From a virus (Duplodnaviria > Caudoviricetes): 64,000 nt of DNA. Of this stretch, positions 5,725-62,922 are shown one piece after another (position 1 is the stretch's first letter; the number at the start of each line of letters is the position of its first letter). The notes beneath the pieces are model-generated. The model had not been told where the DNA came from, made no database searches, and saw nothing but the letters and a program-made list of their open reading frames with translations. The translations under genes and the position numbers were made by a program. The stretch covers positions 128,001 through 192,000 of IMG/VR virus record IMGVR_UViG_3300023213_000432; one strand, given 5' to 3'.

Positions 5725-6057
5725 ATGTTTAAATCTCAAGATTATATATATTTGGGGTATGATTCAAAAACAGATCAATTTCGATACGAAACCACTATCG
5801 TGGATGATGATTTTACTGAAATAGTTATCGCTGCCGCCTCCGCTGATGCTATAAGAGCCGTTGTACGAGCCGCTGTCTTGATCGATGTTTATTCTCGAAG
5901 AAATCTCAACGTAGCTGGTAACTTAGCGTTATTAATGCAATACGTAGAAAATAAGTTATGGATGGATATTAAACAGCAAATTGAAGAGTATCAGAAATTT
6001 GTTCCCGCATATCCAAAATACCATGACCAAGTGATGGACTATCTAATATTTATGTGA
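5725..6057 (+). CDS. dispersed paralog family protein, copy 1
   Basis: Family motifs DDDF.E, LID.YSRRNLNVAGNL, KYHDQVMDYLIF. Confidence 0.85.
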   Translation: MFKSQDYIYLGYDSKTDQFRYETTIVDDDFTEIVIAAASADAIRAVVRAAVLIDVYSRRNLNVAGNLALLMQYVENKLWMDIKQQIEEYQKFVPAYPKYHDQVMDYLIFM

Positions 6058-6287
6058 GGATCATAAACGCATTTTTCAGCATCTTGATATGCTGGACGAT
6101 GACAATCTAATTGGCACTGAAAGAAAGTTTTTATTTAAGTGTGAAGATTGTGAAATGATTGTAAGTGCATCCTTTTCTACTGAAGAAGATTTTATAAAGA
6201 TTGCTGAAAATTTATTAGATCTTACATGCCAATGTGAAGGAATTATGAAAGTTTTACGAGATTAATTATTAAAAAATTGAGGTAAAT

Positions 6288-7004
6288 ATGAAAGGCGCCA
6301 TTTACGTTTCTAAATCAGAGAACGCAAAAATTGCAGGCTCCAATCCCATTGATTGCACTTATGTTTCTATTAAACGAAGTTGCCCCGACACTTGCTCACT
6401 ACGAGATAATAAAACGTGTTATGCGGAAAATGGGCATGTGGGTTTTACCGTTCAAAAGTTAGATCATCGGGCTCGTGGATTGTCAGCATTGCAAGTAGCT
6501 AGGGCGGAAGCCAAAGCCATTGATGATGCTTATAAAGGGAAAGAATTTCCTAAAGGCAGAAATTTGCGCCTTCATGTTTCGGGAGATAGTCGCACCATTA
6601 AAGGTACTAGATTGCTTAACAAAGCTATTCAACGCTGGAAACAGCGCGGTGGCGGTAGTTGTTGGTCCTATACTCATGCTTGGAAACGGGTACCGAGAAT
6701 AGAATGGAAAGATGTCAGTATCTTGGCTTCCATCGAACGAGTAGAAGAAGCATTGGAAGCCCGAAAACAAGGATACGCTCCCGCTTTAGTAGTGCCAGAA
6801 CATATTAGTGATAAGTCCTATAAACTGCCCAATTCAGAAATCAAATGGATACCTTGCGTAGCACAAACAAGAAACATACCATGTTCTGATTGTAAATTAT
6901 GTTTTAATGCAGATAGGTTGTTTGAGGGTGGATTTGGAATTACATTTGCGGTGCATGGGGCAAGAAAAAATTCTTTGAAAAGACATTTACAGGTTCTTCA
7001 ATGA
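6288..7004 (+). CDS. Cys-rich phage protein, Gp88-like (possible Fe-S/Zn binding)
   Basis: CPDTC..CYA, LRLHVSGD, WSYTH, CSDCKLC motifs; family assignment from memory. Confidence 0.5.
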   Translation: MKGAIYVSKSENAKIAGSNPIDCTYVSIKRSCPDTCSLRDNKTCYAENGHVGFTVQKLDHRARGLSALQVARAEAKAIDDAYKGKEFPKGRNLRLHVSGDSRTIKGTRLLNKAIQRWKQRGGGSCWSYTHAWKRVPRIEWKDVSILASIERVEEALEARKQGYAPALVVPEHISDKSYKLPNSEIKWIPCVAQTRNIPCSDCKLCFNADRLFEGGFGITFAVHGARKNSLKRHLQVLQ

Positions 7005-7122
7005 GATGTATATTAATGATGATTATGTGTTCTGGATGTTATACGTTTAGTTATAGCGAGAACCGATGTGTTCGTTCAGGCTATTATGAAATGAGTGATG
7101 GCAAAATGGTTCCTATGTATCG

Positions 7123-7386
7123 ATGCACTTCAACAGGCGATATATGACTATCATTCAGTGGCAAGTTTGTATTTCTGATTGGAGTCTGGATGCCAAGCAT
7201 TATACGAAACCGATCCCAGACACTGGAAAGATTGATCATCGAACTGTTCGGGCAAAAACATTCGATACAGAACGAGAAGCTATTAAATATGCAGAGAAAT
7301 ATCTAAAAGATCGAGAAGACATTGAATGGTTAGCTAGTTTAGAGGTTAAGAAATGCACGACGGAAATAATCAAAAAATTGAAATAA
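7123..7386 (+). CDS. hypothetical protein (likely start 7144)
   Basis: ORF track; ATG at 7144 overlaps the stop of a small upstream ORF (7001..7147). Confidence 0.5.
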   Translation: MHFNRRYMTIIQWQVCISDWSLDAKHYTKPIPDTGKIDHRTVRAKTFDTEREAIKYAEKYLKDREDIEWLASLEVKKCTTEIIKKLK

Positions 7387-8735: not shown

Positions 8736-8757
8736 TTTTACAGAATAAAGGTGCAAT

Positions 8758-11113: not shown

Positions 11114-11452
11114 ATGTTTCGATCTTGCAGTATTACATCCAGATCTAACATACCTGTAATTAGTCAAGAGAGACCGAATTATGAGTATGAAGTTACTATC
11201 GTGGATGATGATTTTTTTGAAACCAAAACTGTTTTTGCCAACGTCGCTACTGAGGCAGCCGCCATCGCATTGATCGATATTTACTCTCAAAAAAATCTCA
11301 ACGTAGCTGGCAATCTAGCGTTGTTGATGCGATATGTAGAACATAATTTTCCAGCGTTAGATATTAACTTGCAAATCAGGGCATACCAAAATAATATTCC
11401 TGAATATTCAAAATACCATGATCAAGTAATGGGTTATCTGGTGTTTTTATGA
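11114..11452 (+). CDS. dispersed paralog family protein, copy 2
   Basis: Family motifs present; divergent N-terminus. Confidence 0.85.
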   Translation: MFRSCSITSRSNIPVISQERPNYEYEVTIVDDDFFETKTVFANVATEAAAIALIDIYSQKNLNVAGNLALLMRYVEHNFPALDINLQIRAYQNNIPEYSKYHDQVMGYLVFL

Positions 11453-11476: not shown

Positions 11477-11806
11477 ATGTTTCGATCTTTTAATTATAAA
11501 TACTTTGGATATAACGGTGAAAAACTTCATCGATATCAAGTTATCATTGTGGATGATGATTTTATTGAAACTGCCACCGTGTTTGCCGTCGCTCCCGGAA
11601 GCATCGCCACTGAAGCCGCTGCCCTGATCGATATTTATTCTCGAAGAAATCTTAATGTGGCTAGTAACTTGGCACTGTTGATGCAATATACAGAACATGT
11701 ATGTCCATGGATAGATATTAAGTGGCAAATCGAGTGTTATCAAAAAGAAATTCCTGAATACCAGAAATACCACGATCAAATAATGGATTATTTAATATTT
11801 TTGTGA
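11477..11806 (+). CDS. dispersed paralog family protein, copy 3
   Basis: Family motifs; tandem with copy 2. Confidence 0.85.
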   Translation: MFRSFNYKYFGYNGEKLHRYQVIIVDDDFIETATVFAVAPGSIATEAAALIDIYSRRNLNVASNLALLMQYTEHVCPWIDIKWQIECYQKEIPEYQKYHDQIMDYLIFL

Positions 11807-13827: not shown

Positions 13828-15708
13828 ATGAAATTTTATCATCTTCTTTTCTTCTTCCTCACCAGTTGCGGAGCCCTCACCCTCTTCTCTCCCGTTCCTG
13901 CTCCCATCCAGCCTCGCCCTATCCAATATCTTTCGGGCTCCTCTTTTCATCCCGAAATTACCAATGGGCTTTCTAACGAAGACCGCGGCACTTACTATCA
14001 CTTTGATGAAGGGATTCAGTGGCTTCCCACTGATGTTATGCTTTCATTGAAACGTCCCTCTTCTAACGTGTTTAAGGTAATGGATGAATTACTGTTAGCT
14101 AAGCCAGAACGTTTTGGTCTTCTCCCCAATTACATTGATGTGCTTTATCCTAACCAACTTAATCCACAAGCGGACATCCCTTTAGGAATTACTATTTCCA
14201 CCAACACCGATTATGTTCCTATGTCCGGAATATCATGCAGCTCATGTCATACTACCATTATTTCTAATTCCGAAGGACATTTCTTCTTAGTTGATGGGGC
14301 TCCTTCTCGTTTTGCGGTAGATCGTTTCGTGGCGGAAATGGTCAAATCTTTGGCGGCTACTTTGGCTAATCCAGTAGAATTTGAAGCCTTTTATGAGCGC
14401 TTTAAAGCTCGTCTTCATTTTGGAATGGGGGAAAGTTATGATCGATTAATATTGCTCAGTTCGCTGAGACTCAAAGATCATCCTGACCTTAAGGCTCTAG
14501 CTCCAGTAGTAGAAAAAGCCTTTAATACCAATGATTGTCAAGAATTGCAAACCAAACTTTCTACTATTTCTAATCCCATTACCTATCGTTTTCAGCGTTT
14601 TACAACCCTTGATTCTGCCTATCCAACTTATGCTATGCTTGGCAATCAACAGGGAATGTATTTCTATTTGGTCAAGCGTTTCATCTTCTTGTTGGAACAA
14701 ACGAAATATGGAACGGCTGACAAAGATTCTTTGGTGGCAGAAAGTGGATTGGGGCGAGCTAACCCATGGAGTGTAGCAAAGAAACTCATCTCCGATAAAT
14801 ATTTCCATCTCAAAAACGCAGTCCATGTAGAAGGTGGGCCAGTAAGCACTCCCTATATGTGGGATTATGATCGCCAAACTTGGGTCTTTTGGAGCGGAAC
14901 CACTAACTCTATGCTGGAACGCAATTTGGCTCAATGCACTACTCTTTTGACCGATTTTAATGAGAAAACTTACGAGACCACCTGCTCCGTCAAGAAACTT
15001 CAGGACATTTCTTATTATGCTCAAAAAATTCAAGCTCCCAAGTGGCCCGAAGCAATTTTAGGCAGCATCGATACCGATAAAGCTAATAAGGGCAAAATCA
15101 TCTTTCAGGATAAATGTTTAAATTGCCATGATCCCAAAGCTTCTTATACTCTCACCGGAACCGCTTCTTATACCTATATAAGTGTTGGAACTGATCCTAA
15201 CTATATTCAAGGACAACTGGAATTAATTAATAAGAAAGATATTTTTACTGGTATGATTGCACCATGGATTAATCATGTAAAGGAAGTAGCCGCCCTTCAA
15301 ATAGAAGGTTTAATTTATATAGATTTGTTAAATTATGAGAATGGAAGATTGCCAGCTACATGGCGCAGTCCAGAGTTGAATCGAATCGAAGCGAAACCAC
15401 TTGCTGGTGTCTGGGCTACTGCACCTTATCTTCATAATGGAAGCGTGCCCACTATTTGGGATTTATTGCAACCAGTGGATCAGCGCCCCCATCGATTTCA
15501 TATTGGCGGGTTTGTTTATGATACCAAAAAGCTTGGATATATTGGAGATGAGAATTTGCCGGATGGATTTGAGTTCGAGGTAAATTGTTTGCATTGTCAA
15601 GGGAATAGCAATCAAGGACATGAATTTGGTACCGAGCTAAGTTCGGAAGATAAATGGAACTTGATTGAATTTCTCAAGTCCTATAATAATGAGACAACAT
15701 TTAAATGA
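13828..15708 (+). CDS. di-heme cytochrome c lipoprotein (RoxA / cytochrome c peroxidase-like)
   Basis: Lipobox LTSCG; heme motifs CSSCH and CLNCH; KPLAGVWATAPYLHNGSVPT signature. Confidence 0.8.
   Translation: MKFYHLLFFFLTSCGALTLFSPVPAPIQPRPIQYLSGSSFHPEITNGLSNEDRGTYYHFDEGIQWLPTDVMLSLKRPSSNVFKVMDELLLAKPERFGLLPNYIDVLYPNQLNPQADIPLGITISTNTDYVPMSGISCSSCHTTIISNSEGHFFLVDGAPSRFAVDRFVAEMVKSLAATLANPVEFEAFYERFKARLHFGMGESYDRLILLSSLRLKDHPDLKALAPVVEKAFNTNDCQELQTKLSTISNPITYRFQRFTTLDSAYPTYAMLGNQQGMYFYLVKRFIFLLEQTKYGTADKDSLVAESGLGRANPWSVAKKLISDKYFHLKNAVHVEGGPVSTPYMWDYDRQTWVFWSGTTNSMLERNLAQCTTLLTDFNEKTYETTCSVKKLQDISYYAQKIQAPKWPEAILGSIDTDKANKGKIIFQDKCLNCHDPKASYTLTGTASYTYISVGTDPNYIQGQLELINKKDIFTGMIAPWINHVKEVAALQIEGLIYIDLLNYENGRLPATWRSPELNRIEAKPLAGVWATAPYLHNGSVPTIWDLLQPVDQRPHRFHIGGFVYDTKKLGYIGDENLPDGFEFEVNCLHCQGNSNQGHEFGTELSSEDKWNLIEFLKSYNNETTFK
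14451..14470 (+). repeat. dispersed hairpin motif copy 2 (inside CDS)
   Basis: 23 nt (TATTGCTCAGTTCGCTGAGACTC) identical to copy 1. Confidence 0.85.
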
Positions 15709-16588: not shown

Positions 16589-16867
16589 TTGGAAGGAAGA
16601 TTCATGAAATTTATCGAGTTAAAGTTCGAACGACATCCACTGGGCATAGACGGTGTTCAAGCACGCGTGACGTTTGCCAATGGCTATGGCGCCTCCGTCA
16701 TTAAGTACCCGTATTCATATGGTGCCGAAGAAGGGTTGTATGAACTCGCGGTTTTCGGCAAGGACGGACAACTTACCTACGACACGCCGATCACTGATGA
16801 CGTGATTGGGTATCTCACGCCGGAAGAAGTTGAGGAACTTCTCGATCGAATCGAGGACTTATCATGA
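16589..16867 (+). CDS. conserved phage hypothetical protein (likely start 16603)
   Basis: FANGYGASVI..YSYG...GLYELAV pattern recalled from phage proteins. Confidence 0.6.
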   Translation: MEGRFMKFIELKFERHPLGIDGVQARVTFANGYGASVIKYPYSYGAEEGLYELAVFGKDGQLTYDTPITDDVIGYLTPEEVEELLDRIEDLS

Positions 16868-17901
16868 AATCTATTCATTATTTAGTGCTTGGCTTATTGT
16901 TGCTGATTGGGTGTCCCGGAGAAGTTGTTAATCCTGATGGCGGTAGCTTGGGCGATGCTATGGATGTAGTAGATGCGGGAATGGAAGCAGATGCATCTGG
17001 AGATAGTCAGGTGAAAGATGTGATAAGTGAAGGGGACGGAGGATTGAATTTTGATTTCTGGTCTTGTGGCAACGAGCCCATTTCATATCACGATGGCCCG
17101 GTCATGGTTGAACCAATTAAAATTTTTGTATTATGGTATGGCAATTGGATTAATAACAATAAAACGGTGCCAATTGTCGAACAATTTATCATTGACCTTA
17201 ATGGAAGTCCGTGGTTTAGCACCACTTCTACCTACTATGAAACTCTTCCTATAGATATGATTGCTCCTGCTCAGGGCGTTATGGGACGTGCCTATGCTAC
17301 CAACAATTTGATTTTAACCAAAAGTGTTTTTATTAGCAGCGCCACTCATGGAAACAATCTTTCAATGTCAGATGTGTTCGCTATTGTTACAGATGCAATT
17401 AATGACCAATCTGTTCCAAATGATCCTACAGCGGCGTATTTAGTTTTGACTAGTTCTGATATTAACCAATATGATGGATTTGAGAGCGCCTGTCAAGCAT
17501 ATTGTGGTTTTCATAACCATAAAATTTACAACGCTGTAGATGTCAAATTTGCATGGATTGGAGATCCTGCTCGTTGCTTAGATGTATGTTCAGCAAAATC
17601 CAAATATGACCTTTATGGTATTTCTCATTCGCCGAACTTTGATTGGAGTGCAGACGCTATGGTTTCTGTGATTGCGCATGAACTGACAGAAATAATTACA
17701 GACTATGCTTACGATACAGCTCCAGCATGGACAGATAGATATGGATGGGAAAATGCAGATAAAGGCGCATGGACATTTGGACAAGTCTATAAAACTGATA
17801 GCGGATCAGTTGCTAATGTTCATTTAGGTGATCGAGATTATCTACTTCAACAGAATTGGACATTGTTTGATGGCGGGCAAGGATGTGCATTGCATCCATA
17901 G
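16864..17901 (+). CDS. phosphate-induced protein 1 / EXORDIUM-like domain lipoprotein
   Basis: Lipobox LLIGC; ISYHDGPVM, LWYGNW, YCGFH, VIAHELTE, ENADK.AW.FG, YLLQQNW. Confidence 0.75.
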   Translation: MKSIHYLVLGLLLLIGCPGEVVNPDGGSLGDAMDVVDAGMEADASGDSQVKDVISEGDGGLNFDFWSCGNEPISYHDGPVMVEPIKIFVLWYGNWINNNKTVPIVEQFIIDLNGSPWFSTTSTYYETLPIDMIAPAQGVMGRAYATNNLILTKSVFISSATHGNNLSMSDVFAIVTDAINDQSVPNDPTAAYLVLTSSDINQYDGFESACQAYCGFHNHKIYNAVDVKFAWIGDPARCLDVCSAKSKYDLYGISHSPNFDWSADAMVSVIAHELTEIITDYAYDTAPAWTDRYGWENADKGAWTFGQVYKTDSGSVANVHLGDRDYLLQQNWTLFDGGQGCALHP

Positions 17902-19115: not shown

Positions 19116-19188
19116 GGGAGTTTAGTTCATTTAGAAGAACGCGACAATAGCATTGTCGATGTGCTGGGAGCGTAGCCCAGAACTTCCA
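19116..19188 (+). tRNA. tRNA-Ala (anticodon AGC), atypical loops
   Basis: Acceptor GGGAGTT/AACTTCC with G3:U70 and A73; D stem GTTC/GAAC; anticodon stem CGACA/TGTCG with loop ATAGCAT; T stem CTGGG/CCCAG. Confidence 0.7.
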
Positions 19189-19248
19189 CTAACTCGCGCT
19201 TATCTCACTTGTTGAGGTAAGTAGATCGAGTAAAAATTATGGCAATTG

Positions 19249-19268
19249 ATTGCTCGGTACGCCGAGAC
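19249..19268 (+). repeat. dispersed hairpin motif copy 3
   Basis: ATTG-CTCGG-TACG-CCGAG-AC. Confidence 0.85.
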
Positions 19269-19618: not shown

Positions 19619-19708
19619 GAATGTATGAATTAGTGAATCGACATTTCCATGCAGATTATTGCCGAGTAGGGAAGCATCCACAGAAATGCAATCATGCACT
19701 AGAATTAT

Positions 19709-19728
19709 ATTGCTCAGTATGCTGAGGC
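19709..19728 (+). repeat. dispersed hairpin motif copy 4
   Basis: ATTG-CTCAG-TATG-CTGAG-GC. Confidence 0.8.
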
Positions 19729-19769: not shown

Positions 19770-20105
19770 ATGTTTAAATCCTATAGCTGGAAATATCTGG
19801 ATTATGACTCAAAAACAGATCAATGGCGATACGAAATCACTATCATGGATGTTGATTTTACTGAACCCGTTGCCGCCTCGGCCATCACAGCTGACTGGAC
19901 CATCAACGACATCGCCGACGCCCTGATCGATATTTACTCTCGAAGAAATCTCAATGTGGCTGGCAATTTAGTATTGTTTATGCAATATGTAGAAAATAAA
20001 TGGCCATGGCGAGATATTAAACGGCAAATTAAATGGTATCAGAAATACGTTCCCGGATATCAAAAATATCATGATCAAGTAATGGACTATCTAATATTTA
20101 TGTGA
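19770..20105 (+). CDS. dispersed paralog family protein, copy 4
   Basis: Family motifs. Confidence 0.85.
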   Translation: MFKSYSWKYLDYDSKTDQWRYEITIMDVDFTEPVAASAITADWTINDIADALIDIYSRRNLNVAGNLVLFMQYVENKWPWRDIKRQIKWYQKYVPGYQKYHDQVMDYLIFM

Positions 20106-20117
20106 TAAAGAAGAAAA

Positions 20118-20465
20118 ATGTTTAGATTTTATGATTGGAAATGTTTTGAATCTATTTATGAAACAGAAAAATCGCAATATGAAATTACTATCGTGGATGA
20201 TGATTTTATTGAAATCGAAATGATCAGCGTGGGCTTAAGAGGCAATGGTTCTCTCACCGATATCATCGCCACTTTTCACGCTATAATCAATACTTATTCT
20301 CGAAGAAATCTCAATGTAGCTGGAAACCTAGTTTTGTTGATGCAGTTTATAGAACATAAATGGCCATCTATGGATATTAAATGGCAAATTGAGATTTGCC
20401 AGCAATTCATTTCAGAGTATCGGGAATACCATGATCAAGTAATGGATTATTTAATATTTTGGTGA
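20118..20465 (+). CDS. dispersed paralog family protein, copy 5
   Basis: Family motifs; tandem with copy 4. Confidence 0.85.
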   Translation: MFRFYDWKCFESIYETEKSQYEITIVDDDFIEIEMISVGLRGNGSLTDIIATFHAIINTYSRRNLNVAGNLVLLMQFIEHKWPSMDIKWQIEICQQFISEYREYHDQVMDYLIFW

Positions 20466-20479: not shown

Positions 20480-20521
20480 ATGTTTAAATCCTATAGCTGG
20501 AAATATCTGAGTTATACTTAA
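20480..20521 (+). pseudogene. 5' fragment of a paralog family gene
   Basis: ATGTTTAAATCCTATAGCTGGAAATATCTG is identical to the first 30 nt of copy 4, then stops after 13 codons. Confidence 0.8.
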
Positions 20522-20543
20522 AAAACGTTCAGCCTCTATACAA

Positions 20544-36317: not shown

Positions 36318-36650
36318 ATGTTTAAATTCTTTGAATGGAAATATCTAGGTTATGATCCAAAAACAGATCAGTATCGATCCGAAATCACTATCGTGGATGA
36401 TGATTTTACCGAAACCCTCGTCGCCGCCTCCCCAATCGGCGGCGAAGCCGTTGTTCCACCCGCCACCACCGCCTTAATCGATATTTATTCTCGAAGAAAT
36501 CTCAATGTGGCTGGTAATCTCGTGTTGTTGATGCAAGATATAGAAAGTAAATGGCTAGACATTAAACTACAAATCGAATATTATCAAAAATATATTCCTG
36601 AATATTCAAAATATCACGATCAAGTAATGGGTTATCTAATATTCACATGA
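36318..36650 (+). CDS. dispersed paralog family protein, copy 6
   Basis: Family motifs. Confidence 0.85.
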   Translation: MFKFFEWKYLGYDPKTDQYRSEITIVDDDFTETLVAASPIGGEAVVPPATTALIDIYSRRNLNVAGNLVLLMQDIESKWLDIKLQIEYYQKYIPEYSKYHDQVMGYLIFT

Positions 36651-37162
36651 GTCTGCAAGATAAAAAACGCCTCAAGCGGATTAAAAATGACGTCATTGAG
36701 CGAGATGGAATGATTTGTTGCTACTGCGATACTGTATTGACACTCGAAACATTAACACTTGATCATATCGTTCCTGATAGCAAACGAGGAACTTTCAATT
36801 CCACTAATTTGACAGTTTCTTGTAAAACCTGCAATAATAATCGCGGGAACAAGCCATTCTTTGAATATTGTAAAAAATTCAAATTTTCCGAAGATAAAAT
36901 TAATAAGTATAAGCGACTGTATTTTAATAACCTTAAAATCAAAGTATTGAATATTGCTAAGGAAGAATGTTTAAAGAGTGATTGTGCCATTCCTAAAAAA
37001 TTGATTAATAAAGCTTGCCAGATTTTGAAAATCAAACCTATCTCGTTTGCAAATTATGAGAAGGAATACCCATTGAATATTGATTTTTCCACTTCATGTC
37101 GGAGACGGGAAATTAAATTTTGTTTTGAGCAATTAATAAGGATTATAGAAGTGGATACGTAG
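36647..37162 (+). CDS. HNH endonuclease (McrA-like)
   Basis: RDG..CCYC..TLDHIVP..NL..SCKTCNNNRG. Confidence 0.85.
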   Translation: MSLQDKKRLKRIKNDVIERDGMICCYCDTVLTLETLTLDHIVPDSKRGTFNSTNLTVSCKTCNNNRGNKPFFEYCKKFKFSEDKINKYKRLYFNNLKIKVLNIAKEECLKSDCAIPKKLINKACQILKIKPISFANYEKEYPLNIDFSTSCRRREIKFCFEQLIRIIEVDT

Positions 37163-46875: not shown

Positions 46876-46885
46876 AATAGTCAAT

Positions 46886-46905
46886 ATTGCTCAGTGCGCT
46901 GAGAC
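46886..46905 (+). repeat. dispersed hairpin motif copy 5
   Basis: ATTG-CTCAG-TGCG-CTGAG-AC. Confidence 0.85.
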
Positions 46906-49871: not shown

Positions 49872-50164
49872 TCTTGATCTATATTCTTGCCATTTTTGGA
49901 CTTAATTTTGCTATTCGTCAAACAAGCGGGCCTTATGGAAGCATTGCTTGGCTTCGCAATAAGTTAATGTCCAATAGGCATTTAGGCGTCCTTTTTTACC
50001 AACTCTTAGAATGCTCGTTTTGTAGTGGGTTTTGGTGTGGAATTGTGATATGCCTGCTCCAAGGAGAAATACATATTAATCAACTTATTGTGTGGGGTTT
50101 GGCAGGCGCAACTATCAGTCTTATCTTAGATGCAACATTGACCAAATTGTGGTACGAAAAATGA
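49868..50164 (+). CDS. small membrane protein (DUF1360-like)
   Basis: GP....LR..LLEC.FC.GFW plus TM helices. Confidence 0.55.
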   Translation: MILIYILAIFGLNFAIRQTSGPYGSIAWLRNKLMSNRHLGVLFYQLLECSFCSGFWCGIVICLLQGEIHINQLIVWGLAGATISLILDATLTKLWYEK

Positions 50165-50769
50165 TCCAACAGTTTTGGGATAGGTGTTCTCTTTGTCCGG
50201 TATGTCATAACCGCCGAGTTCTTAGGGCTTCTGTTGGCCCGGATCGTTTCTTTCGAGACACTTCTTTTCAAAAAGAAGATAATGTTTTTCGGATCAAAAC
50301 CTATTATAAATGGAAAGATTTGAGATATTGTATTCATTTTGATATTGATTGTTTGACCAACACATTTACCGCTTCCTTTGAGGATCAATCAGATCAGTCA
50401 ATGGATGCCGCTATGAGTTTGGAAGATGAGAAATTATTCAAGAGAGTAGATTATGCTCGACCTTATTTTTGGATTGATGGAAATTGTCATCATTGCGAAA
50501 GAACAGCCATTCATACTACCGATATCATTCTTGATATGAGAACTATGCAACTAATACATAATGATATTGGAATCGAAAGAGAACTTATTTATGTTATGAA
50601 TCAATATGAAATAATTTTGCGCCCGCTTCAAAAGGAAATGGATATTGGCAAGCTAATAGACGGTGGTATAAAAATGAGCCAATACTTAACATGTCCTTTA
50701 GTAGATATCGATTTTTCTAATCCCGAACAAGCATTAAAGCGAGTAGAAACTTTATTAGTGTTTGGATGA
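50092..50769 (+). CDS. hypothetical protein (likely start 50161)
   Basis: CPVC..CHHC; ends RVETLLVFG. Confidence 0.6.
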   Translation: MGFGRRNYQSYLRCNIDQIVVRKMIQQFWDRCSLCPVCHNRRVLRASVGPDRFFRDTSFQKEDNVFRIKTYYKWKDLRYCIHFDIDCLTNTFTASFEDQSDQSMDAAMSLEDEKLFKRVDYARPYFWIDGNCHHCERTAIHTTDIILDMRTMQLIHNDIGIERELIYVMNQYEIILRPLQKEMDIGKLIDGGIKMSQYLTCPLVDIDFSNPEQALKRVETLLVFG

Positions 50770-50772
50770 GAT

Positions 50773-51105
50773 ATGTTTCGATCCTTTGACTGGAAATATC
50801 TGGATTATGATCCAACAACAAATCAATCTCGATACGAAATTATTTTTGTAGATGATGATTTTATCGAGACCACAATCGCTGCCTCCATTGCAGACTATGT
50901 CGTTGTCACCGTTTCCATCGCCCTAATCGATATTTACTCTCGAAGAAATCTCAATGTAGCTGGTAATCTAGTTTTGCTGATGCAATATATAGAAAATAAA
51001 CGGTCATGGGCAGATATTAAATGGCAAATCGAGGAATACCAAAAATGCATTCCAGAATATCAAAAATACCATGATCAAGTAATGGACTATCTAGTATTCA
51101 TGTGA
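50773..51105 (+). CDS. dispersed paralog family protein, copy 7
   Basis: Family motifs. Confidence 0.85.
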   Translation: MFRSFDWKYLDYDPTTNQSRYEIIFVDDDFIETTIAASIADYVVVTVSIALIDIYSRRNLNVAGNLVLLMQYIENKRSWADIKWQIEEYQKCIPEYQKYHDQVMDYLVFM

Positions 51106-51117
51106 GAAAGAAGTAAA

Positions 51118-51453
51118 ATGTTTCAATCTTTTGATTGGAGATATCTGGGTTATAATCTAAAAACAAATCAATCTCAATACGAAACTACTTTCGTAGATGA
51201 TGATTTTATCGAAACAGTCGTCGTTTCCTTCATCAGCACCATCAATGACGGATCTTCCCTCGCCGCTGTTCTGATTGATATTTACTCTCAAAGAAATCTC
51301 AATGTAGCGGGCAATCTTGTGTTGTTAATGCAATATATAGAAAATAAATGGCCATGGATAGATATTAAGTGGCAAATCGAGCGTTATCAAAAAGAAGTTC
51401 CTGAATACCAGAAATACCACGATCAAGTAATGGATTATCTAATATTCATGTAG
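51118..51453 (+). CDS. dispersed paralog family protein, copy 8
   Basis: Family motifs; tandem with copy 7. Confidence 0.85.
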   Translation: MFQSFDWRYLGYNLKTNQSQYETTFVDDDFIETVVVSFISTINDGSSLAAVLIDIYSQRNLNVAGNLVLLMQYIENKWPWIDIKWQIERYQKEVPEYQKYHDQVMDYLIFM

Positions 51454-51463
51454 AAGTTGTTAT

Positions 51464-51483
51464 ATTGCTCGGTACGCCGAGAC
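51464..51483 (+). repeat. dispersed hairpin motif copy 6
   Basis: ATTG-CTCGG-TACG-CCGAG-AC, identical to copy 3. Confidence 0.85.
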
Positions 51484-51505
51484 GGTTAAAACAGAGGTTG
51501 ATAAA

Positions 51506-52153
51506 ATGGCACTTAAAATTGTTGCAATATCTGATACGCATTCTTATCATCGCAAGATTAGCGTGCCTGATGGTGATGTTCTAGTTTTTGCGGGCGACAT
51601 AACGTGGAAAGGTGAATTAGATATTATTGCTGATTTTGTCAATTGGCTTCGAGAATTACCCCACAAACATAAGTGCGTGATATTTGGCAACCATGAATTA
51701 GGATTTCAACATGGTTTTAAACGGATTCCTGCTATCAATATGATCAAAGAGGCGGGAGCACATTATCTTGAGGATAGCGGGGTTGAAATTGAAGGGAAAC
51801 TTTTTTGGGGTAGCCCATGGCAGCCATGGTTTCACGATTGGGAATGGAATTTACCACGAGGAGAAAAATTGGCCAAAAGATGGGCTATGATACCTAAGGA
51901 AACTAACGTTTTGTTGTGCCATGGCCCTCCATTCGGCATTGGTAGTTTGGACTTGCTAGATTCTGGCGAGAGGGTTGGTTGTGAAGAGCTGACTAAAAGA
52001 ATAAAAACTCTTCCAGAATTGGAATTATTTGTGTGCGGTCATATTCATTCGGGATACTCTAAGCACATAGAAAATAATGTTACTTTTGTGAATGCTGCTA
52101 GTTGCGACGAACAGTATAATCCAATTAATCCTCCGATTATTGTGGATTTATGA
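51506..52153 (+). CDS. calcineurin-like metallophosphoesterase
   Basis: ISDTH, FAGD, IFGNHE, LCHGPP, CGHIH. Confidence 0.9.
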   Translation: MALKIVAISDTHSYHRKISVPDGDVLVFAGDITWKGELDIIADFVNWLRELPHKHKCVIFGNHELGFQHGFKRIPAINMIKEAGAHYLEDSGVEIEGKLFWGSPWQPWFHDWEWNLPRGEKLAKRWAMIPKETNVLLCHGPPFGIGSLDLLDSGERVGCEELTKRIKTLPELELFVCGHIHSGYSKHIENNVTFVNAASCDEQYNPINPPIIVDL

Positions 52154-52273
52154 TTTCCAATTTTGACCAGATTTGATGGCACCAATAGTGCTCTAACTAA
52201 CATTGTATATTTTGGCTATTTCTTTTTGTGTTAGATCATTATTTAATGAACCGATTGTGATTGAGGTATAAGA

Positions 52274-52621
52274 ATGAAGAAGAAAAATTATTTTATTGTA
52301 ATCAGCAAGGACATCGATGATTTCGACCCGTCAACCCTCATGCCTAATCCAATTATTGTATTAGGGGCAACTAATATGGAAGCCAAATATTTCAATGATC
52401 TGTCAGGTGAAATTTCAATTGAGGTAAATGGAGATGAAGTGTTCTTTTCTTGCAGCGGCAAAATGCATCATCAGATTGCTGGGCTTCAAAAGCAAATTGC
52501 TAAAAAAGAAAAACAATTTGCACAGCATATCAGAAGCATGAAATTGGCTCTTGGAGTTATGAAAGAGGGACTAAAAGTCGCTCGCAAAGCCATCAAGAAA
52601 AACAAAAGCAATGAACTATAA
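52274..52621 (+). CDS. hypothetical protein
   Basis: GAGG RBS; 115 aa. Confidence 0.6.
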   Translation: MKKKNYFIVISKDIDDFDPSTLMPNPIIVLGATNMEAKYFNDLSGEISIEVNGDEVFFSCSGKMHHQIAGLQKQIAKKEKQFAQHIRSMKLALGVMKEGLKVARKAIKKNKSNEL

Positions 52622-52799
52622 AGAATTAGCAAGAAAATGGTTGATTGAACACGAGCATTATGAACACGAACATTCTTTCAACGATGATTTAGAAAGCCTT
52701 TTGACATTAATTACTACGGCAGTTGATCATTATTTTGATACTTATGAAGAAATAGCGCCGACGGAATGCAAGAATTGTAAGTGTGGAAGGTTTAAATGA
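52611..52799 (+). CDS. hypothetical protein
   Basis: Coupled small ORF. Confidence 0.5.
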   Translation: MNYKELARKWLIEHEHYEHEHSFNDDLESLLTLITTAVDHYFDTYEEIAPTECKNCKCGRFK

Positions 52800-53158
52800 T
52801 TAAATTCAAATTATTCAGTGAATACGGCAGATCCTTCAAGGAATACTTGCCAAAGAAGTGCAAAAGATTGCCATCTCCTTTCACCCTGAAACATATCAAG
52901 CCGGGGATGTTCAATAAAACGGTGATGAAAAGATTACAATCCGCTAAAGAAAACGGTATGAAAATCGCTGTTCGGAAGTATGCTGGTTATAACCTTGTCG
53001 GCATTTTAGTAATCAACGAAGAAGATCAAAAAGAACAAAAGAAGGAACTCACTAGCCTCAAAAGAAAATATACTCGGTTGCTGAAAGATGAGAAGGTGAT
53101 AGAGTTTTTGAACATCAAAGCTAAATTGTTTATATTGACTAACGGGGCGGATTTATAA
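52796..53158 (+). CDS. hypothetical protein
   Basis: Coupled ORF. Confidence 0.55.
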   Translation: MIKFKLFSEYGRSFKEYLPKKCKRLPSPFTLKHIKPGMFNKTVMKRLQSAKENGMKIAVRKYAGYNLVGILVINEEDQKEQKKELTSLKRKYTRLLKDEKVIEFLNIKAKLFILTNGADL

Positions 53159-53638: not shown

Positions 53639-54883
53639 ATGGAAAAAATAATGATAACTTATAAACCTAACGATTTTCGAACATATACTAAACAAGATGT
53701 AGAAAAACTTCGAGGCTCTTTTCAAATAGAATACACTGTTGCCAAAATGGGCGCCGAAAGATTATGGTGGCTTTTTAATAATCGTCCATACATCAAAGCA
53801 CTTGGGGCACTAACTGGCAATCAAGCTATGCAAATGGTCAAAGCAGGATTGGAAGCTATCTATTTGAGTGGTTGGCAAGTAGCCGCCGATAATAATACTT
53901 ATGGTGGCATGTATCCAGATCAATCTATTTATCCTGTCAACAGTGTTCCTAATGTGGTCAAGAAAGTTAATAATACTTTATTTCGAGCAGATCAAATTGA
54001 ACATGTTGAAGGCGGTGTCAAACGACATTGGTTAGCCCCGATTATAGCTGATGCTGAAGCTGGTTTTGGTGGATGCTTGAATTCTTTTGAATTAGCCAAG
54101 AACATGATTGAGGCAGGGGCAGCCGGCATTCATTATGAGGATCAGTTGTCGAGTGAAAAGAAATGTGGGCATTTGTCGGGCAAAGTATTGATTCCAACAT
54201 CTTCCTTCATTAAACATCTTATTGCCGCCCGATTAGCAGCAGATGTTTGTGGCACTAAAACGGTATTAGTTGCTCGAACAGATGCGGATAGTGCCCAGTT
54301 TATTACTTCGGATGCGGATGAATATGACGCTCCCTTTATTGATAAGGAAAAGCGAAGTAAAGATGGCTTCTATAAGGTGATAGGCGATCCAATAGATCGT
54401 TGCGTTGCTCGTGGTTTAGCTTATGCTCCTTATGCGGATATGTTATGGATGGAGACGAGCACGCCTTCATTGGAACAAGCTCAAAAATTTGCTGAAGGTA
54501 TCCATGCTAAATATCCTGACAAACTTCTTGCCTATAATAATTCGCCGTCTTTCAATTGGAAAAAACATCTTTCCAATAAGGAAATTGCAACATTCCAAGA
54601 CGAATTGGGCAAATTAGGCTATAAGTTTCAATTTATTACGTTAGCAGGCTTCCATGCACTCAATACCAGTATGTTTGAGTTAGCAGCCGGATATAAAGAG
54701 CATGGGATGAGTGCTTATGTAGAGTTGCAAGAGAAAGAGCTTGGATTGCAGGAGCTAGGATTTAGCGCAGTGAAACATCAAAGAGAAATTGGAACCGGAT
54801 ATTTCGACATGGTTCGCCAAGTGATCGATGGTAATTCAGAAATGTCAGCGTTAGAACATTCGACGGAAAAGAAACAATTTTGA
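53639..54883 (+). CDS. aceA: isocitrate lyase
   Basis: [64 protein letters not shown]. Confidence 0.95.
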
Positions 54884-58264: not shown

Positions 58265-59398
58265 ATGACTCAACCCAATCACAAAAACATGACTGTTTCC
58301 GATTTCAATTTGGTTAAACTAAACACCAAACAATTATCGGAACATATTGCAGCCACTATTCAAGGCGGCGGAAACATCGCCATTTTTGGCAAGCGTGGCA
58401 CCGGCAAAACAGAAATTTCTAAACAAGAGATTAAAAACGCTGGGCTTCAAGAAGTTTATATTAACCTCTCAGTTTTGGAAAGAACAGATTTAGCCGGATT
58501 TCCTCGGGTGTTATGTGCTGATCAGACAGAGAAATACGTGGAATATTTGCTTCCCCAGTTTTACAAGCCATTAATTGAGGGCAATAAAGAAGCGGTAGTT
58601 GTTTTTGATGAAGTAGATAAAGCTGATCCTAGCATTTGGGCACCCTTGTTAGAATTTACTCAATTCAAAAGTATTAATCAGCGATCTCTTCCCAATCTCA
58701 AATCTATTATTATGACGGGCAACTTAATTTCCGAAGGCGGCTCTCGTCCTAGTTTGCCACTATTGGATCGCAGTGAAAAATATTTAGTGGAAGCGGATGC
58801 TACTCTTTGGTTAGATTGGGCTGCCAAAGTTGGGCATATTCACCCTGCCATTCGAGCTTATATTTCTGACAATAATTTGGATTTGCATGGTGTTGCTGAC
58901 CCGGAAGATCGTTATGCCGATCCTTCTCCTCGTGGTTGGACAAATGCTTCCAAGATCTTGCAAAAAGGTGAAGAACAGGGCTGGAATACTGCTCTTCTTA
59001 AGCAAAAAGTTCATGGATGTGTTGGAAAAGCTGCTGGTATTAAATATGACATTTACTATGAGCATTATCAACAACTCTTGCCGATGATTGATGATTTGTT
59101 TCGAGGAAAGGACATTTTGGATCAGTATGAGAAAATGGAACCATCTAAAAAGATGGTGGCTTGTATGATTGCTTGCACTCGACTAGCTAATCAATTAGAT
59201 CTTGCTACGCCAGAGCAACCGCCGCCTACCATTTCCATCATTGGAAAGTTTTTACAACATGTTTCTTATGAAAATGCTTATATTGCGATTCGGGGCTCCA
59301 TTCAATTAGAACGATTTATTAAGTTCAAATTAGATATTCATCCAGATTGGAAAGAACATGTTAAGGAGCTTAAAGATCGAATCAAAGTTAGAATTTGA
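58265..59398 (+). CDS. MoxR-like AAA+ ATPase
   Basis: GKRGTGKT, VFDEVDKA, TGN, LLDR, PSPRGW. Confidence 0.85.
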   Translation: MTQPNHKNMTVSDFNLVKLNTKQLSEHIAATIQGGGNIAIFGKRGTGKTEISKQEIKNAGLQEVYINLSVLERTDLAGFPRVLCADQTEKYVEYLLPQFYKPLIEGNKEAVVVFDEVDKADPSIWAPLLEFTQFKSINQRSLPNLKSIIMTGNLISEGGSRPSLPLLDRSEKYLVEADATLWLDWAAKVGHIHPAIRAYISDNNLDLHGVADPEDRYADPSPRGWTNASKILQKGEEQGWNTALLKQKVHGCVGKAAGIKYDIYYEHYQQLLPMIDDLFRGKDILDQYEKMEPSKKMVACMIACTRLANQLDLATPEQPPPTISIIGKFLQHVSYENAYIAIRGSIQLERFIKFKLDIHPDWKEHVKELKDRIKVRI

Positions 59399-59401
59399 AA
59401 A

Positions 59402-59692
59402 ATGTTTCGATCTTATAGTTTGAAACCTCTAGATTACGGATACGAAATCACCATCGTGGATGATGATTTTACTGAATCTGCCTTCGCCATGAACGTGCCC
59501 TCCGTCACTGCCCTGATTAATATTTACTCTCGAAGAAATCTTAATGTGTCTGGCAATTTAGCTTTACTAATACGATATGGAGAATATAAACACTCATGGG
59601 ATATAAAAAGGCAAATTAAATGGTTTCAAGCATATGTTCCTGAATACCAGAAATACCATGATCAAGTAATAGACTATCTAATATTTTTGTGA
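59402..59692 (+). CDS. dispersed paralog family protein, copy 9 (shortest)
   Basis: Family motifs. Confidence 0.85.
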   Translation: MFRSYSLKPLDYGYEITIVDDDFTESAFAMNVPSVTALINIYSRRNLNVSGNLALLIRYGEYKHSWDIKRQIKWFQAYVPEYQKYHDQVIDYLIFL

Positions 59693-59773: not shown

Positions 59774-61315
59774 ATGAAATTTTCTCGTGTAATTGGAAAA
59801 ATTGATCCCAAGCTGATAGAACAAGCTGAAAGAAAATTATCAGAAGTGTTTTTGGAATTAGGAACACGATATGACAATATGGTAGTAGGAAGCGGATTAG
59901 GAGGAGATCCATTTGTCTTCACCCTTCTCTATCCAGTGCAACACATAGCTACTCTTAATATTCCAACTGCCGCCACTGATGGTATTAGATATTATTGGAA
60001 TCCCAAGTTCGTTATTAAACGTTCTAAAATTGGTTTGCGAATTGTTTCGGCTCACGAAGCTTTTCATGCCAACTACATGCATCCCCAAAGACGAGGTTCT
60101 CGATTGCCCAAATTGTGGAATATCGCCATTGATTATATTGTTAATGGAATTATCATGGAAGATTTACAATTCCGTGAGCCGAAAACCAAATTAAATCCCG
60201 AGGACACTTTCATCAAGCATTTGGGAAGATTTATGACTTTGACCCAATATGCGGAATACATCAAGGATCCTTTTGCTAAGATCAAAGGGTTCGATGATTT
60301 GGTTCCTGCAGAGAACGAAAATGGAGTCGAATTACCAGCGCCCGGAGAGGATCGAGAATTAACGCCTCAAGAAACCCGAGAACTAGAAAGAAGAGAAAAA
60401 TCGGTCAAATTTTATTTCGCGGATCCCAACTTAAGCGAGGAGATGAAAAAACCAGAACGAATTTACGATCACCTTTATAATTTGTTGCCCAAGTGTCCCA
60501 AGTGTGGTCAAGTAGGTATTTATCCTAATCCCAACAAGAACAAAAATAAAGCCGATCATAAAGATCACGACCATAAAGATAATAAAAAATGTGATCATGA
60601 AGGGGGTATTGATATTTTTGGATTGGGCGGTTCCACCATGGATGAACACATGGATACCGAAGAAAGCGAGGAAAAGTTAGCTAAACGATTATCTGATGCT
60701 ATGGAAACTTCCAAAAAGATGGCTGGTAAAATTCCCGCAGCTTTGGAAGAAGAGTTGGGAAAATTAATTGCTCCCAAGATCGCTTGGAAAGATGTGATTC
60801 GTGGAAGGATATTAAAATCTAGGGCTGGTAATGAACGTAATGATTGGACGCGATTTCGAACTCGTCCCATGTTTTTTGGTTTATTGGTACCTAAAAGAAA
60901 AGGTTATGTAGCTAGATTTGGTTGTTTGTTAGATACAAGCGGATCGATGAGCAAGGATGATTTAGTTTTTGGGATATCTCAACTTCAAGGACTAGATGAA
61001 AGAAATGAAGGCATTATTGTTCCTGCTGATGCTCAGTGTTATTGGGATCGAGCCACCAAGATTAGAGCTTGTAATGCGGAAGAGTTGAGTAAAGTAAAGA
61101 TAGTAGGAAAAGGTGGTACAATGTTCGGAAACTTTTTCTCTGATTATGAAAAACAAATTGGGCGAGTAGATTTTCTAATTTGTATAACCGACGGATTTTT
61201 GATGGATACCGATATTGCGGCGATGGTGCAACCTAAAGTGCCAGTGTATTGGATTTTGACCAGTAATTCTACTTTCAAGGCGCCCTTTGGAAAAGTATTT
61301 CAGTTAAGGGATTGA
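59774..61315 (+). CDS. putative metallopeptidase / VWA-like domain protein (DUF2201-like), MoxR partner
   Basis: TAATDG, AHEAFH, WNIAID, LDTSGSM, GGT.F, ITDG. Confidence 0.85.
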   Translation: MKFSRVIGKIDPKLIEQAERKLSEVFLELGTRYDNMVVGSGLGGDPFVFTLLYPVQHIATLNIPTAATDGIRYYWNPKFVIKRSKIGLRIVSAHEAFHANYMHPQRRGSRLPKLWNIAIDYIVNGIIMEDLQFREPKTKLNPEDTFIKHLGRFMTLTQYAEYIKDPFAKIKGFDDLVPAENENGVELPAPGEDRELTPQETRELERREKSVKFYFADPNLSEEMKKPERIYDHLYNLLPKCPKCGQVGIYPNPNKNKNKADHKDHDHKDNKKCDHEGGIDIFGLGGSTMDEHMDTEESEEKLAKRLSDAMETSKKMAGKIPAALEEELGKLIAPKIAWKDVIRGRILKSRAGNERNDWTRFRTRPMFFGLLVPKRKGYVARFGCLLDTSGSMSKDDLVFGISQLQGLDERNEGIIVPADAQCYWDRATKIRACNAEELSKVKIVGKGGTMFGNFFSDYEKQIGRVDFLICITDGFLMDTDIAAMVQPKVPVYWILTSNSTFKAPFGKVFQLRD

Positions 61316-61316
61316 T

Positions 61317-61505
61317 ATGTTGCAGGGAATAATAAATGCTATCGCGAGTTTTGAAAGAGAAACTGGAACTAAGCCAGCTGGATTAGTTTTGACTAAACAT
61401 CAATTTGATTGTTTACTGTCTGAACTGGTCTCAAAATGTGTTAAGTTTGAGAGCGGAAGCGATCCATATTGCGGTATTGTTTTGTATGGAACAAGGATCG
61501 AGTAG
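61317..61505 (+). CDS. hypothetical protein
   Basis: Small ORF abutting the previous stop. Confidence 0.5.
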   Translation: MLQGIINAIASFERETGTKPAGLVLTKHQFDCLLSELVSKCVKFESGSDPYCGIVLYGTRIE

Positions 61506-61591
61506 ATTAACGAAAATACTAATGAACTTTGAGAAAGAAAAAATAATTTATCAATTGTGTTCCAAATATACCAATAATATATCATTTTAAT

Positions 61592-62506
61592 ATGGTTAAG
61601 TTTTCCAATGAATTTTTGCTTCCTCATGTCCTAACAAATATTCAACATCAAGTTTTAGTAGGATCACTATTGGGTGATGGATCATTAGAATTGCCTGGCA
61701 AATTTCCACGAATGAAGATTGGTCGTCAAATCAAAGATCATTTGTATTTGGAATGGGAATATAGTCTTTTTCAAGATTTATGCAAGAGTGGCATCAAAAC
61801 AATATGTCGATATGATAGCAGATACAATAAAGCATATAAGCATGTATATTTTCAGACACGAGCGGTGCCGGCATTTTTGAATTATTATCACCAATGGTAT
61901 CCTAATGGAAAAAAGACAGTCCCCAAAGATTTGAAATTAACGTCCCTTATATTGGCAGTATGGTTTGCCGACGATGGCTGTATTATTCGCAAAAATAATC
62001 ATTTAACACTCAAAATAGCGACAGACGGATTTGGATTTGAAGGCGCCAATAGATTATCCCAAAAATTAGAGCAAAGATATAGTTGCAAATTTCCAATCTA
62101 TCAAAAACAAAAAAATAAAGATTTGTGGTTTATAAAAACATCAACGCGTGCCGCCCAACCATTTATTAAAGATATCGCTCCACATATTGAGCAGATGGGC
62201 ATGAGCAGGAAATCTGACTTATGGAAGAGTTTTGATCTCAACACAATTCCTATCGCTGGCAGAATGCCTAATAAGGAAGCAGAAAAACAATTATACAAAG
62301 CAATTTTAAAACTACAGGATTTTTCAGTCAATAAATTAGTTAGTTTAGCAGACCAATATGATATTAATACATTACGCTCATATTTAAATGATTTTATTAA
62401 AGACGGCTATTTAATTAGATATGAAGGTTCAGAAAAATGGAATTTATATCATTACAAAATGACTAATACGGGAAAAAATTTTTTCCGAGAGGTAGCTAGA
62501 AAATGA
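61592..62506 (+). CDS. LAGLIDADG homing endonuclease (paralog of 55361..56371)
   Basis: GSLLGDGSL and LAVWFADDG. Confidence 0.85.
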   Translation: MVKFSNEFLLPHVLTNIQHQVLVGSLLGDGSLELPGKFPRMKIGRQIKDHLYLEWEYSLFQDLCKSGIKTICRYDSRYNKAYKHVYFQTRAVPAFLNYYHQWYPNGKKTVPKDLKLTSLILAVWFADDGCIIRKNNHLTLKIATDGFGFEGANRLSQKLEQRYSCKFPIYQKQKNKDLWFIKTSTRAAQPFIKDIAPHIEQMGMSRKSDLWKSFDLNTIPIAGRMPNKEAEKQLYKAILKLQDFSVNKLVSLADQYDINTLRSYLNDFIKDGYLIRYEGSEKWNLYHYKMTNTGKNFFREVARK

Positions 62507-62583
62507 GTTTGATAGGATTAGTGGCGCTATCGATAGTGTTAGTGGTTGGACTATATGGAAATATGTTAAAGGATAAAGAATAA

Positions 62584-62922
62584 ATGTTTCGATCTTACGA
62601 TTATAAATATCTTGGATTTAACAATAAAACAGATCAATGGCGATATGAAATTACTATCATGGATGACAACTTTACTGAAACTGCTGTTGCCGCCGCCGTC
62701 GCGGACGTTGGCGACAATGACGCTACGCGCATCGCCGCTGTCCTTATCGATATTTATTCTCGAAGAAATCTCAATGTGGCCGGTAATCTAGTTCTGCTGA
62801 TGCAATATATAGAAAATAAATGGTCACGTGATATTAAAAGGCAAATTGAATTGTATCAGGAACATATTATAGAATATCAGAAATATCATGATCAGGTAAT
62901 GGGTTACTTGGTATTTATATGA
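62584..62922 (+). CDS. dispersed paralog family protein, copy 10
   Basis: Family motifs. Confidence 0.85.
   Translation: MFRSYDYKYLGFNNKTDQWRYEITIMDDNFTETAVAAAVADVGDNDATRIAAVLIDIYSRRNLNVAGNLVLLMQYIENKWSRDIKRQIELYQEHIIEYQKYHDQVMGYLVFI

Follow-up and report, generated by a model that had tools for sequence, protein, structure and literature searches.

What use has a tailed phage for at least 13–16 diverged copies of one small gene, conserved towards both ends and hypervariable in the middle? The question is raised by a 64,000-nt stretch of viral DNA (Duplodnaviria; Caudoviricetes), ‘the window’ below, which comprises bases 128001–192000 of the single-contig IMG/VR record IMGVR_UViG_3300023213_000432 (198,652 bp, 39% G+C), labelled G000 here. 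Ten members of the family lie in the window, and a preliminary description, made from the sequence without database searches, saw in them either a selfishly spreading gene cassette or an expanded family of effectors or adaptors under diversifying selection. The answer for which we argue, judging its chances to be about even, is that they belong to a phage-only multigene family of fast turnover, in which a conserved protein frame carries one variable segment and the paralogs would constitute a panel of host-directed binders. Positions are those of the window unless marked as genome positions, and the window's copies are named by their first base.

Old and constrained paralogs

The ten open reading frames (ORFs), all on the + strand and 96–115 aa long, are present as first described and align over their full length at 50–71% identity, with 29 invariant columns; the invariant features include M1, F2, the D-D-D-F-x-E motif, a YSRRNLNV..NL block and YHDQ..YL.F. 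A hidden Markov model (HMM) built from them retrieves 13 ORFs from the record, with E-values of 1e-44 to 1e-60, and nothing else, the additional three starting at genome positions 55850, 78236 and 196509, and a DNA profile (nhmmer) of the record adds one 64-nt 5′ remnant right after the 20118 copy. Three more members (P0007, P0014 and P0017) are on a second, 327,423-bp version of the contig in the protein collection, bringing the total in this phage to at least 13–16. By CheckV G000 is 46% complete (for the partial records G001 and G011, considered below, the figures are 28% and 62%), and since records with the same AAA/DUF2201 gene module include complete genomes of 447–452 kb, one of them with direct terminal repeats, G000 is taken to be a fragment of a huge phage.

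Outside the variable segment the ratio of nonsynonymous to synonymous divergence (dN/dS) among the G000 paralogs is 0.25 and dS is about 0.85, which marks the copies as real, constrained genes and as old paralogs. Their products are mostly acidic (pI 4.4–6.0). An additional conservation at the DNA level, ascribed in the preliminary description to a central block and the 3′ end, is not borne out: dS is 0.70 and 0.88 there and 0.74–0.75 elsewhere in the gene, and since it is no lower, the likeness that caught the eye is that of protein conservation plus codon bias.

The spacers that part the copies from the gene upstream are 0–24 nt long. That several copies start 0–3 nt after the previous stop codon is true of 5725 and, counted from a 26-codon mini-ORF, of 62584 (0 nt each), as well as of 50773 and 59402 (3 nt each), and does not extend to the second members of pairs, which start 12–24 nt after the first. 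Such spacing suggests that most copies may be expressed as translationally coupled passengers of the gene upstream.

The variable segment

Across 121 members of the wider family entropy is highest at positions 33–49, in a stretch 10–29 residues long. It is flanked by the residues that are conserved best of all, D27 and F30 on its N-terminal side and I52 and Y55 on its C-terminal side. The 13 segments of G000 occupy 12–23 codons between D-D-D-F-x-E and L-I-D-I-Y-S, and they cannot be aligned between copies. Their codon choice sets them apart from their surroundings, with C in 60% of third positions as against 12–13% in the remainder of the same genes and 16% in the long ORFs of the genome (binomial p 4e-52), and the bias holds for every amino acid (in the segment versus genome-wide, GCC for Ala is 70% versus 19%, ATC for Ile 76% versus 25% and GAC for Asp 83% versus 21%). 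Third-position C is at 72% in the segments of G001 and at 83% in those of the related contigs L013 and L014, where C also takes 87% of second positions; the L013 segment is scored by Tandem Repeats Finder (TRF) as a period-3 tandem repeat of about 20 units (score 64). On the simplest reading, the segment in this clade is a (GCC)n tract that lengthens and shortens in frame and decays. The clade of L011 and L012 is without the bias (third-position C 13–14%) and has an equally variable segment.

How fast is the change? A copy on L013 and one of those on L014 (L014-5862) show 7 differences over 251 sites in the flanks of the segment, and within it 10 of 48 sites differ and an 18-nt indel sets the two apart (Fisher p 4e-5). 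That they differ far more inside the segment than outside supports its fast change, and the (GCC)n-derived tract of this clade is altered through in-frame indels and dense substitution while the remainder of the gene stays nearly as it was. A guide-RNA or silent-cassette source of the segments was considered and rejected, only chance matches of 13–17 nt being found.

Duplication, homogenisation and a newly filled site

Three pairs and the remnant in the window, and arrays of three to eight copies in relatives, are traces of tandem duplication, by which the family grows, the truncated remnant being part of the same process. TRF scores positions 50773–51455 as a 348-nt tandem repeat with 79% matches. 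Movement of two of the tandem pairs as a two-gene unit was rejected; the spacers are similar, but 50773 and 51118 are mutually the closest relatives, and local duplication fits better.

A tree places the copies of G000 and G001 in one unresolved group and those of the L013/L014 type in another. In approximately unbiased (AU) tests the grouping of copies by site was rejected (p 0.002 and 0.004) and a clade by lineage accepted (p 0.67). This greater likeness within a lineage than at a common site fits gene conversion or replacement and amounts to homogenisation lineage by lineage. The L013 and L014-5862 copies, which stand in different gene contexts, are 97% identical over a length that begins 5 nt ahead of the start codon, where the preceding gene has its stop, and ends with their own stop codon, and they are mosaic in that 13 of 28 sites differ in a 28-nt C-terminal patch (p 3e-10). 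Because the site in L014 is old and the sequence of its copy young, conversion or replacement is preferred to a first arrival. At the DNA level almost nothing is common to G000 and G001 except the family genes (75–78% identity) and IS-like elements (87–92%).

At least four copy sites are shared by G000 with divergent phages, and at several of them the flanking proteins are only 39–75% identical. The 12.6-kb contig L014 (45% G+C) is collinear with genome positions 185101–198270 of G000, at 46–80% protein identity, and carries copies both at the same site before the Fe-S gene and at that of the 196509 copy. In G000, L014 and L068 alike, PNKP is followed by an 80-aa gene, a family copy and an RNA ligase; at the site of the 196509 copy that of L068 is cut to 83 aa, and just as the copy at genome position 55850 follows a 252-aa gene, an array in L012 follows a homolog of that gene.

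The 59402 copy has a different history. It lies, as the preliminary description had it, between an ATPase gene and that of its VWA partner, the products being a weak-AAA protein and a DUF2201_N+DUF2201 protein. In L014 these two genes are parted by an 18-nt spacer only, without a family copy, and in 21 of 21 further related loci they are again adjacent and the 6 kb around them are free of family copies; the comparison of filled and empty loci that had been proposed thus yields one such site. With the pair adjacent and the copy lacking in all 22 related loci, the 59402 copy is, by this comparison, a lineage-specific insertion. What separates the AAA stop codon from the native spacer in G000 is the ORF plus 3 nt before and 2 nt after it, with no duplication or repeat visible at the filled or the empty site. 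The flanks of the 13 copies are unrelated and without shared terminal sequences, inverted repeats or target-site duplication. To judge from such comparisons, the family is not a defined mobile element, and yet it is not static; copies occupy small intergenic slots just 3′ of other genes, at least one such slot being newly colonised, and copies are lost as well as gained.

Breadth and distribution

In an exhaustive search the profile matched 375 clusters (formed at 50% identity) with E ≤ 1e-3, 62 of them with E ≤ 1e-10, and nearly all consist of stand-alone proteins of 90–130 aa. The profile search suggested at the outset brought out a wide family, and no match to a characterised one. One motif scan of cellular genomes, in which 185,579 prokaryotic species were represented by a single genome apiece, gave no relative, tblastn of the GenBank phage collection with one copy gave no match, and no description of the family was found in curated libraries or the literature. 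The family appears to be confined to phages.

It is multi-copy on every related metagenome contig examined. L011 (20 kb, from a 196-kb contig) has 7 copies, in arrays of three and four; L012 (20 kb, from a 110-kb contig) has 16, in arrays of four, four and eight; L015 and L016, two 16-kb stretches of WNFI01697384.1, have six each; and even contigs of 2.3–2.5 kb hold three or four. G011 has one distant copy. Three complete relatives (447–452 kb) and six partial records are without the family, including the syntenic 252-kb G007, which is collinear with the window from 49.5 kb onward and has unrelated small ORFs in the same slots, with no remnant of the family in them. A look for loci related to the EF-Ts and NDT/NUDIX neighbours of copies gave one distant locus for the former and none for the latter.

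A predicted fold

‘No recognisable domain’ was the verdict from the sequence, and it stands: Pfam, PHROGs, NCBIfam and PADLOC gave no match above threshold, the best being chance-level singletons among the 10, 36 or 121 members scanned, and the best E in a profile search of PDB sequences was 0.49. Structure prediction was more generous. The AlphaFold2 model of the 50773 copy, made with the 121-sequence alignment, has a predicted local distance difference test score (pLDDT) of 96.3 and a predicted template-modelling score (pTM) of 0.88, with strands at 2–13, 18–27 and 31–38 and helices at 43–57, 62–76, 82–92 and 94–109. In the model of this small soluble protein, four helices pack against a sheet of three strands to make the frame, and the hypervariable segment, which lies at one end, is predicted to take in strand 3, the loop that follows and the opening turns of helix 1. 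The model of the 20118 copy (pLDDT 94.3) has the same fold, and its extra residues extend the loop between strand 3 and helix 1 and the start of that helix. Invariant or nearly so are D27, F30, I52, Y55, V62, N65 and Y99, while R58, N61, L66 and Y106 are strongly conserved. The predicted homodimer scores 0.10 where the mark is 0.42, which is evidence neither way.

Neighbours in fold space were sought widely. Foldseek against the PDB, BFVD, AFDB clusters and Swiss-Prot found none that was significant (best E 0.08–0.37), the wide VIA-align search (best Z 5.3) and the Atlas search (template-modelling (TM) score about 0.5) were likewise not significant, and a search of the ESM Atlas by features gave no usable match. 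Residues 2–61 superpose weakly on the strand-strand-strand-helix unit of the double-stranded RNA-binding domain (dsRBD) and of the N-terminal half of the RNase H-like fold, at non-significant Foldseek E-values of 0.17–0.5 and TM scores by query of 0.3–0.38, and in the Atlas TM is about 0.5 to RNase H-domain clusters; unlike these folds, the family protein has neither the first helix of the dsRBD nor strands 4–5 of RNase H. The resemblance is at most a lead from modelling. A dsRBD proper (alpha-beta-beta-beta-alpha) was ruled out by DSSP of both models, in which the chain opens with strand 1 at residue 2 and has no N-terminal helix. For the LAGLIDADG, GIY-YIG, HNH, His-Cys, PD-(D/E)xK and EDxHD nuclease domains the 121 members gave no Pfam match, the fold searches being uninformative. 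Prediction of structure and a look for a common partner had been proposed together: they have given a confident fold with no significant structural neighbour, and copies whose neighbouring genes are heterogeneous.

Explanations weighed

On the reading that we favour, each paralog would bind, as an inhibitor or adaptor, a target set by its variable end, and the panel that they form might serve to take over the host or to counter its defences in the manner of the expanded families of large DNA viruses. It is by analogy with these that the proteins are held probably to act on the host. A more ambitious version, which seems to us rather unlikely, is that huge phages have here a retroelement-independent means of diversification, with a small binder repertoire whose frame would be kept uniform by conversion and whose specificity segment would be remade by slippage and substitution, so providing a standing panel of inhibitors or adaptors to set against variable host defence or surface proteins.

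A good deal weighs against the favoured reading. The role as a binding panel is an analogy only. The segment's dN/dS is about 1, from saturated values and an unreliable alignment, and positive selection on it is unsupported; of the expanded family under diversifying selection that the preliminary description envisaged, there remain the family-wide hypervariable segment, the lineage-specific expansions and the lack of a match to any characterised family, while the selection itself is not upheld. In this clade the segment is low in complexity (Ala/Val/Thr/Ile) and modelled partly as strand and helix, and it may be tolerated filler instead of a specificity loop. As to homogenisation, the groups for the AU tests were chosen from synteny, but after the first tree had been seen; a Sawyer-type run test within G000 gave no globally significant conversion tract (p 0.18); the dS of about 0.85 among its paralogs implies that any homogenisation there is not recent; and the contigs L013 and L014 may be one phage or two strains.

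The filler idea leads to the chief alternative, an unlikely but serious one, in which the gene dynamics would be the same and the segment merely a neutral, slippage-prone (GCC)n filler, with all paralogs doing one job, be it a matter of dosage or of structure or assembly (e.g. a packaged internal protein). A dN/dS that does not exceed 1, low-complexity composition, the period-3 repeat scored by TRF and a frame under purifying selection are all in its favour, as are the identical segments carried by the L012 array members at 10662 and 14964. It accords less well with clades such as that of L011 and L012, where the same position is again the most variable without being low in complexity or biased to NNC codons, and dosage alone hardly explains why 13–16 diverged, intact copies are kept. 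Could the variability instead be directed, with the segment as the target of a diversity-generating retroelement (DGR) or other mutator in the unsequenced part of the genome? There is room for one, the record being only 46% complete, and the NNC or NNY codons for every amino acid, with variation at positions 1 and 2, are what AAC or AAY template codons would give. We nevertheless think this very improbable, since the three partial records G000, G001 and G011 (about 585 kb in total) have no RVT_1 match, nhmmer finds in the record only the 13 genes and the remnant with no template-like copy of the conserved flanks, and no segment has a second match in it; nor are 13 segments of 12–23 codons obtainable from one template, just as an 18-nt indel parts two near-identical copies. 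Furthermore the closest relatives carry a plain GCC repeat, and the segment is in mid-protein, outside the known DGR target folds.

Two further explanations were weighed. An autonomous selfish gene, with an ORF that encodes or recruits an activity copying it to new intergenic sites, perhaps aided by neighbouring homing endonucleases, was one half of the preliminary proposal. It can point to one clean insertion in a gene pair adjacent at 22 related loci, to the ORF-exact 97% identity between two different loci in relatives, to a conserved acidic D-x-[DE] motif and to the homing-endonuclease genes that adjoin two of the window's ten copies (HNH at 36647, LAGLIDADG at 61592). As an autonomous element, however, the cassette is not supported: similarity stops at the ORF ends, no shared flanks, inverted or terminal repeats or target duplications accompany it, no nuclease or recombinase family is matched, four sites are common to divergent phages, the family is absent from most relatives despite the same slots being there, and the tandem arrays with overlapping stop and start that are the usual state elsewhere point to duplication; we regard it as improbable. 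The other, on which an ordinary conserved phage gene was duplicated long ago and its copies have stayed where they were without any special dynamics, would account for the several sites common to phages with flanking proteins 39–75% identical and for the dS of about 0.85 among G000 copies. Against such duplicates are the rejection of positional orthology in the AU test, the 59402 site filled only in G000, the existence of a truncated remnant and a truncated copy, the near-identical copies at different loci in relatives and the absence of the family from complete relatives, and there is very little to be hoped for from this explanation; copy positions identical in all relatives, which had been named as its mark, are not what is found.

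Comparison with known systems

Lineage-specific multigene families are well known in large DNA viruses, with the ‘genomic accordions’ of poxviruses and the ankyrin, BTB and F-box expansions of giant viruses. The family is like them in having many paralogs that form tandem arrays and cluster by lineage, in the birth and death of its copies, in its patchy distribution and in a presumed role in host interaction. It is unlike them in that the host is a bacterium or archaeon and the virus a tailed-phage-like huge phage, and in being made of a single small domain, without detectable relative, that has one triplet-repeat-coded variable segment. Closer to home, the hyperplastic regions of T4-type phages reportedly harbour mobile promoter/stem-loop cassettes (PeSLs), and there too small accessory ORFs sit in slots between conserved genes, with occupants that vary among related phages, as they do here in G007; in the present case, unlike with PeSLs, one family fills many slots, and a 22-nt motif, described below, touches two of the ten copies instead of bracketing genes. 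The locus of the T4 internal proteins (IPI-III) is another variable one with small polymorphic phage proteins, at least one of which counters a host defence, but there is no relation in sequence or fold, and the N-terminus in our family is strand 1 of the fold and not a detachable capsid-targeting peptide.

With DGR targets, exemplified by Mtd of Bordetella phage BPP-1, the family has in common a conserved frame around a hypervariable stretch with NNC/NNY codons; it differs in that no reverse transcriptase or template repeat was found, in the unequal lengths and mid-protein position of the stretch, in the involvement of many genes and in the plain GCC repeat of relatives. In simple-sequence contingency loci a short in-gene tandem repeat likewise alters its length by slippage and so changes the product, but the unit here has three bases and keeps the frame, and the outcome is variable length and sequence with no on/off switch. 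Expanded, fast-turnover viral gene families are known as a kind, then, and this design appears to be new as far as the tools used can tell: a small fold whose gene was always present in several copies on the huge-phage and related metagenome contigs examined, a variable segment coded by a repeat, and no retroelement.

Should each paralog bind a target of its own, the family would offer a large and so far untapped store of proteins with which phages counter defences or take over hosts, and if the scheme as a whole is true, it would exemplify diversification of a protein panel without a DGR, through duplication, homogenisation of the frame and a slippage-prone in-frame repeat. For those inclined to tinker, there is a compact, confidently modelled scaffold of 110 residues with a natural variable segment. 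Even on the most conservative reading this is an unannotated family of hundreds of sequence clusters to which an appreciable part of the small ‘hypothetical’ genes in huge phages belongs.

The copies and their surroundings

The copies in the window are listed in Table 1. A look for public sequencing runs covering 50000–53000 gave none. Their neighbours are a motley company of NDT/NUDIX, DUF7227, 2OG-Fe oxygenase, EF-Ts, HNH, metallophosphoesterase, AAA/DUF2201, LAGLIDADG and Fe-S genes and unknowns. The arrays in L011 and L012 also stand before a metallophosphoesterase gene, not necessarily the orthologue of that in the window.

Table 1. Family copies and the remnant in the window (all positions in window coordinates)
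Feature	Position	Strand	Length	Variable segment	Context
Family copy	5725..6057	+	110 aa	5821-5877	0 nt after stop of NDT/NUDIX gene 4543-5724
Family copy	11114..11452	+	112 aa	11222-11269	First of pair
Family copy	11477..11806	+	109 aa	11570-11623	Second of pair, 24-nt spacer
Family copy	19770..20105	+	111 aa	19866-19922	First of pair; promoter-like 22-nt motif at 19705-19726
Family copy	20118..20465	+	115 aa	20214-20282 (23 codons, longest)	
5′ remnant, third tandem copy	20480..20543	+	13 codons then stop		First 30 nt identical to 19770 copy
Family copy	36318..36650	+	110 aa	36414-36473	Stop overlaps start of HNH endonuclease gene 36647-37162
Family copy	50773..51105	+	110 aa	50869-50922	First of pair
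Family copy	51118..51453	+	111 aa	51214-51270	Followed by 22-nt motif and metallophosphoesterase gene 51506-52153
Family copy	59402..59692	+	96 aa (shortest)	59477-59512	Between AAA ATPase 58265-59398 and DUF2201 VWA-like gene 59774-61315
Family copy	62584..62922	+	112 aa	62680-62742	Directly upstream of Fe-S assembly gene 62930-63253

The LAGLIDADG_2 endonuclease gene (61592–62506) lies between the DUF2201 gene and the 62584 copy and is probably itself a lineage-specific insertion, since the collinear L014 and G007 have other small genes there. The 26-codon mini-ORF that precedes the same copy (62503–62583) encodes a hydrophobic peptide (MSLIGLVALSIVLVVGLYGNMLKDKE) and stops exactly at the start codon of the copy. 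The 22-nt motif, TTATATTGCTC.GTA.GC.GAG, is promoter-like and includes a small hairpin. The + strand has five occurrences, where 0.01 are expected, at 14447–14468, 19245–19266, 19705–19726, 46882–46903 and 51460–51481, and two of the five touch family copies. In L068 a Pfam match to Acb5 (PF26761) at L068:7266–7496 is about 3 kb downstream of the truncated family copy, beside a metallophosphoesterase gene.

The short elements shared by G000 and G001 at 87–92% nucleotide identity are at genome positions 67636–67900, 94032–94390, 120029–120379, 127328–127692 and 165201–165465. A second multi-copy family, of about 250–300 aa and without a Pfam match, has one copy in G000 (genome positions 61996–62898; L069:1497–2396) and at least eight ORFs, at 39–67% identity to that copy, in the 118-kb G001. 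A 51-nt tandem repeat (3.5 units, 72% matches) at 30007–30186 lies within a 632-aa minus-strand ORF (28426–30324) that likewise has no Pfam match.

The window is also furnished with auxiliary genes unusual for a phage, encoding a RoxA-like cytochrome c (13828–15708), a Phi_1/EXORDIUM-like protein (16864–17901), EF-Ts (35103–35993) and isocitrate lyase (53639–54883), and with six tRNA genes (Ala-AGC, Gly-TCC, Leu-CAA, Leu-TAG, Arg-TCT and Arg-ACG), of which the tRNA-Ala at 19116–19189 has an anticodon, AGC, that is unusual for bacteria.

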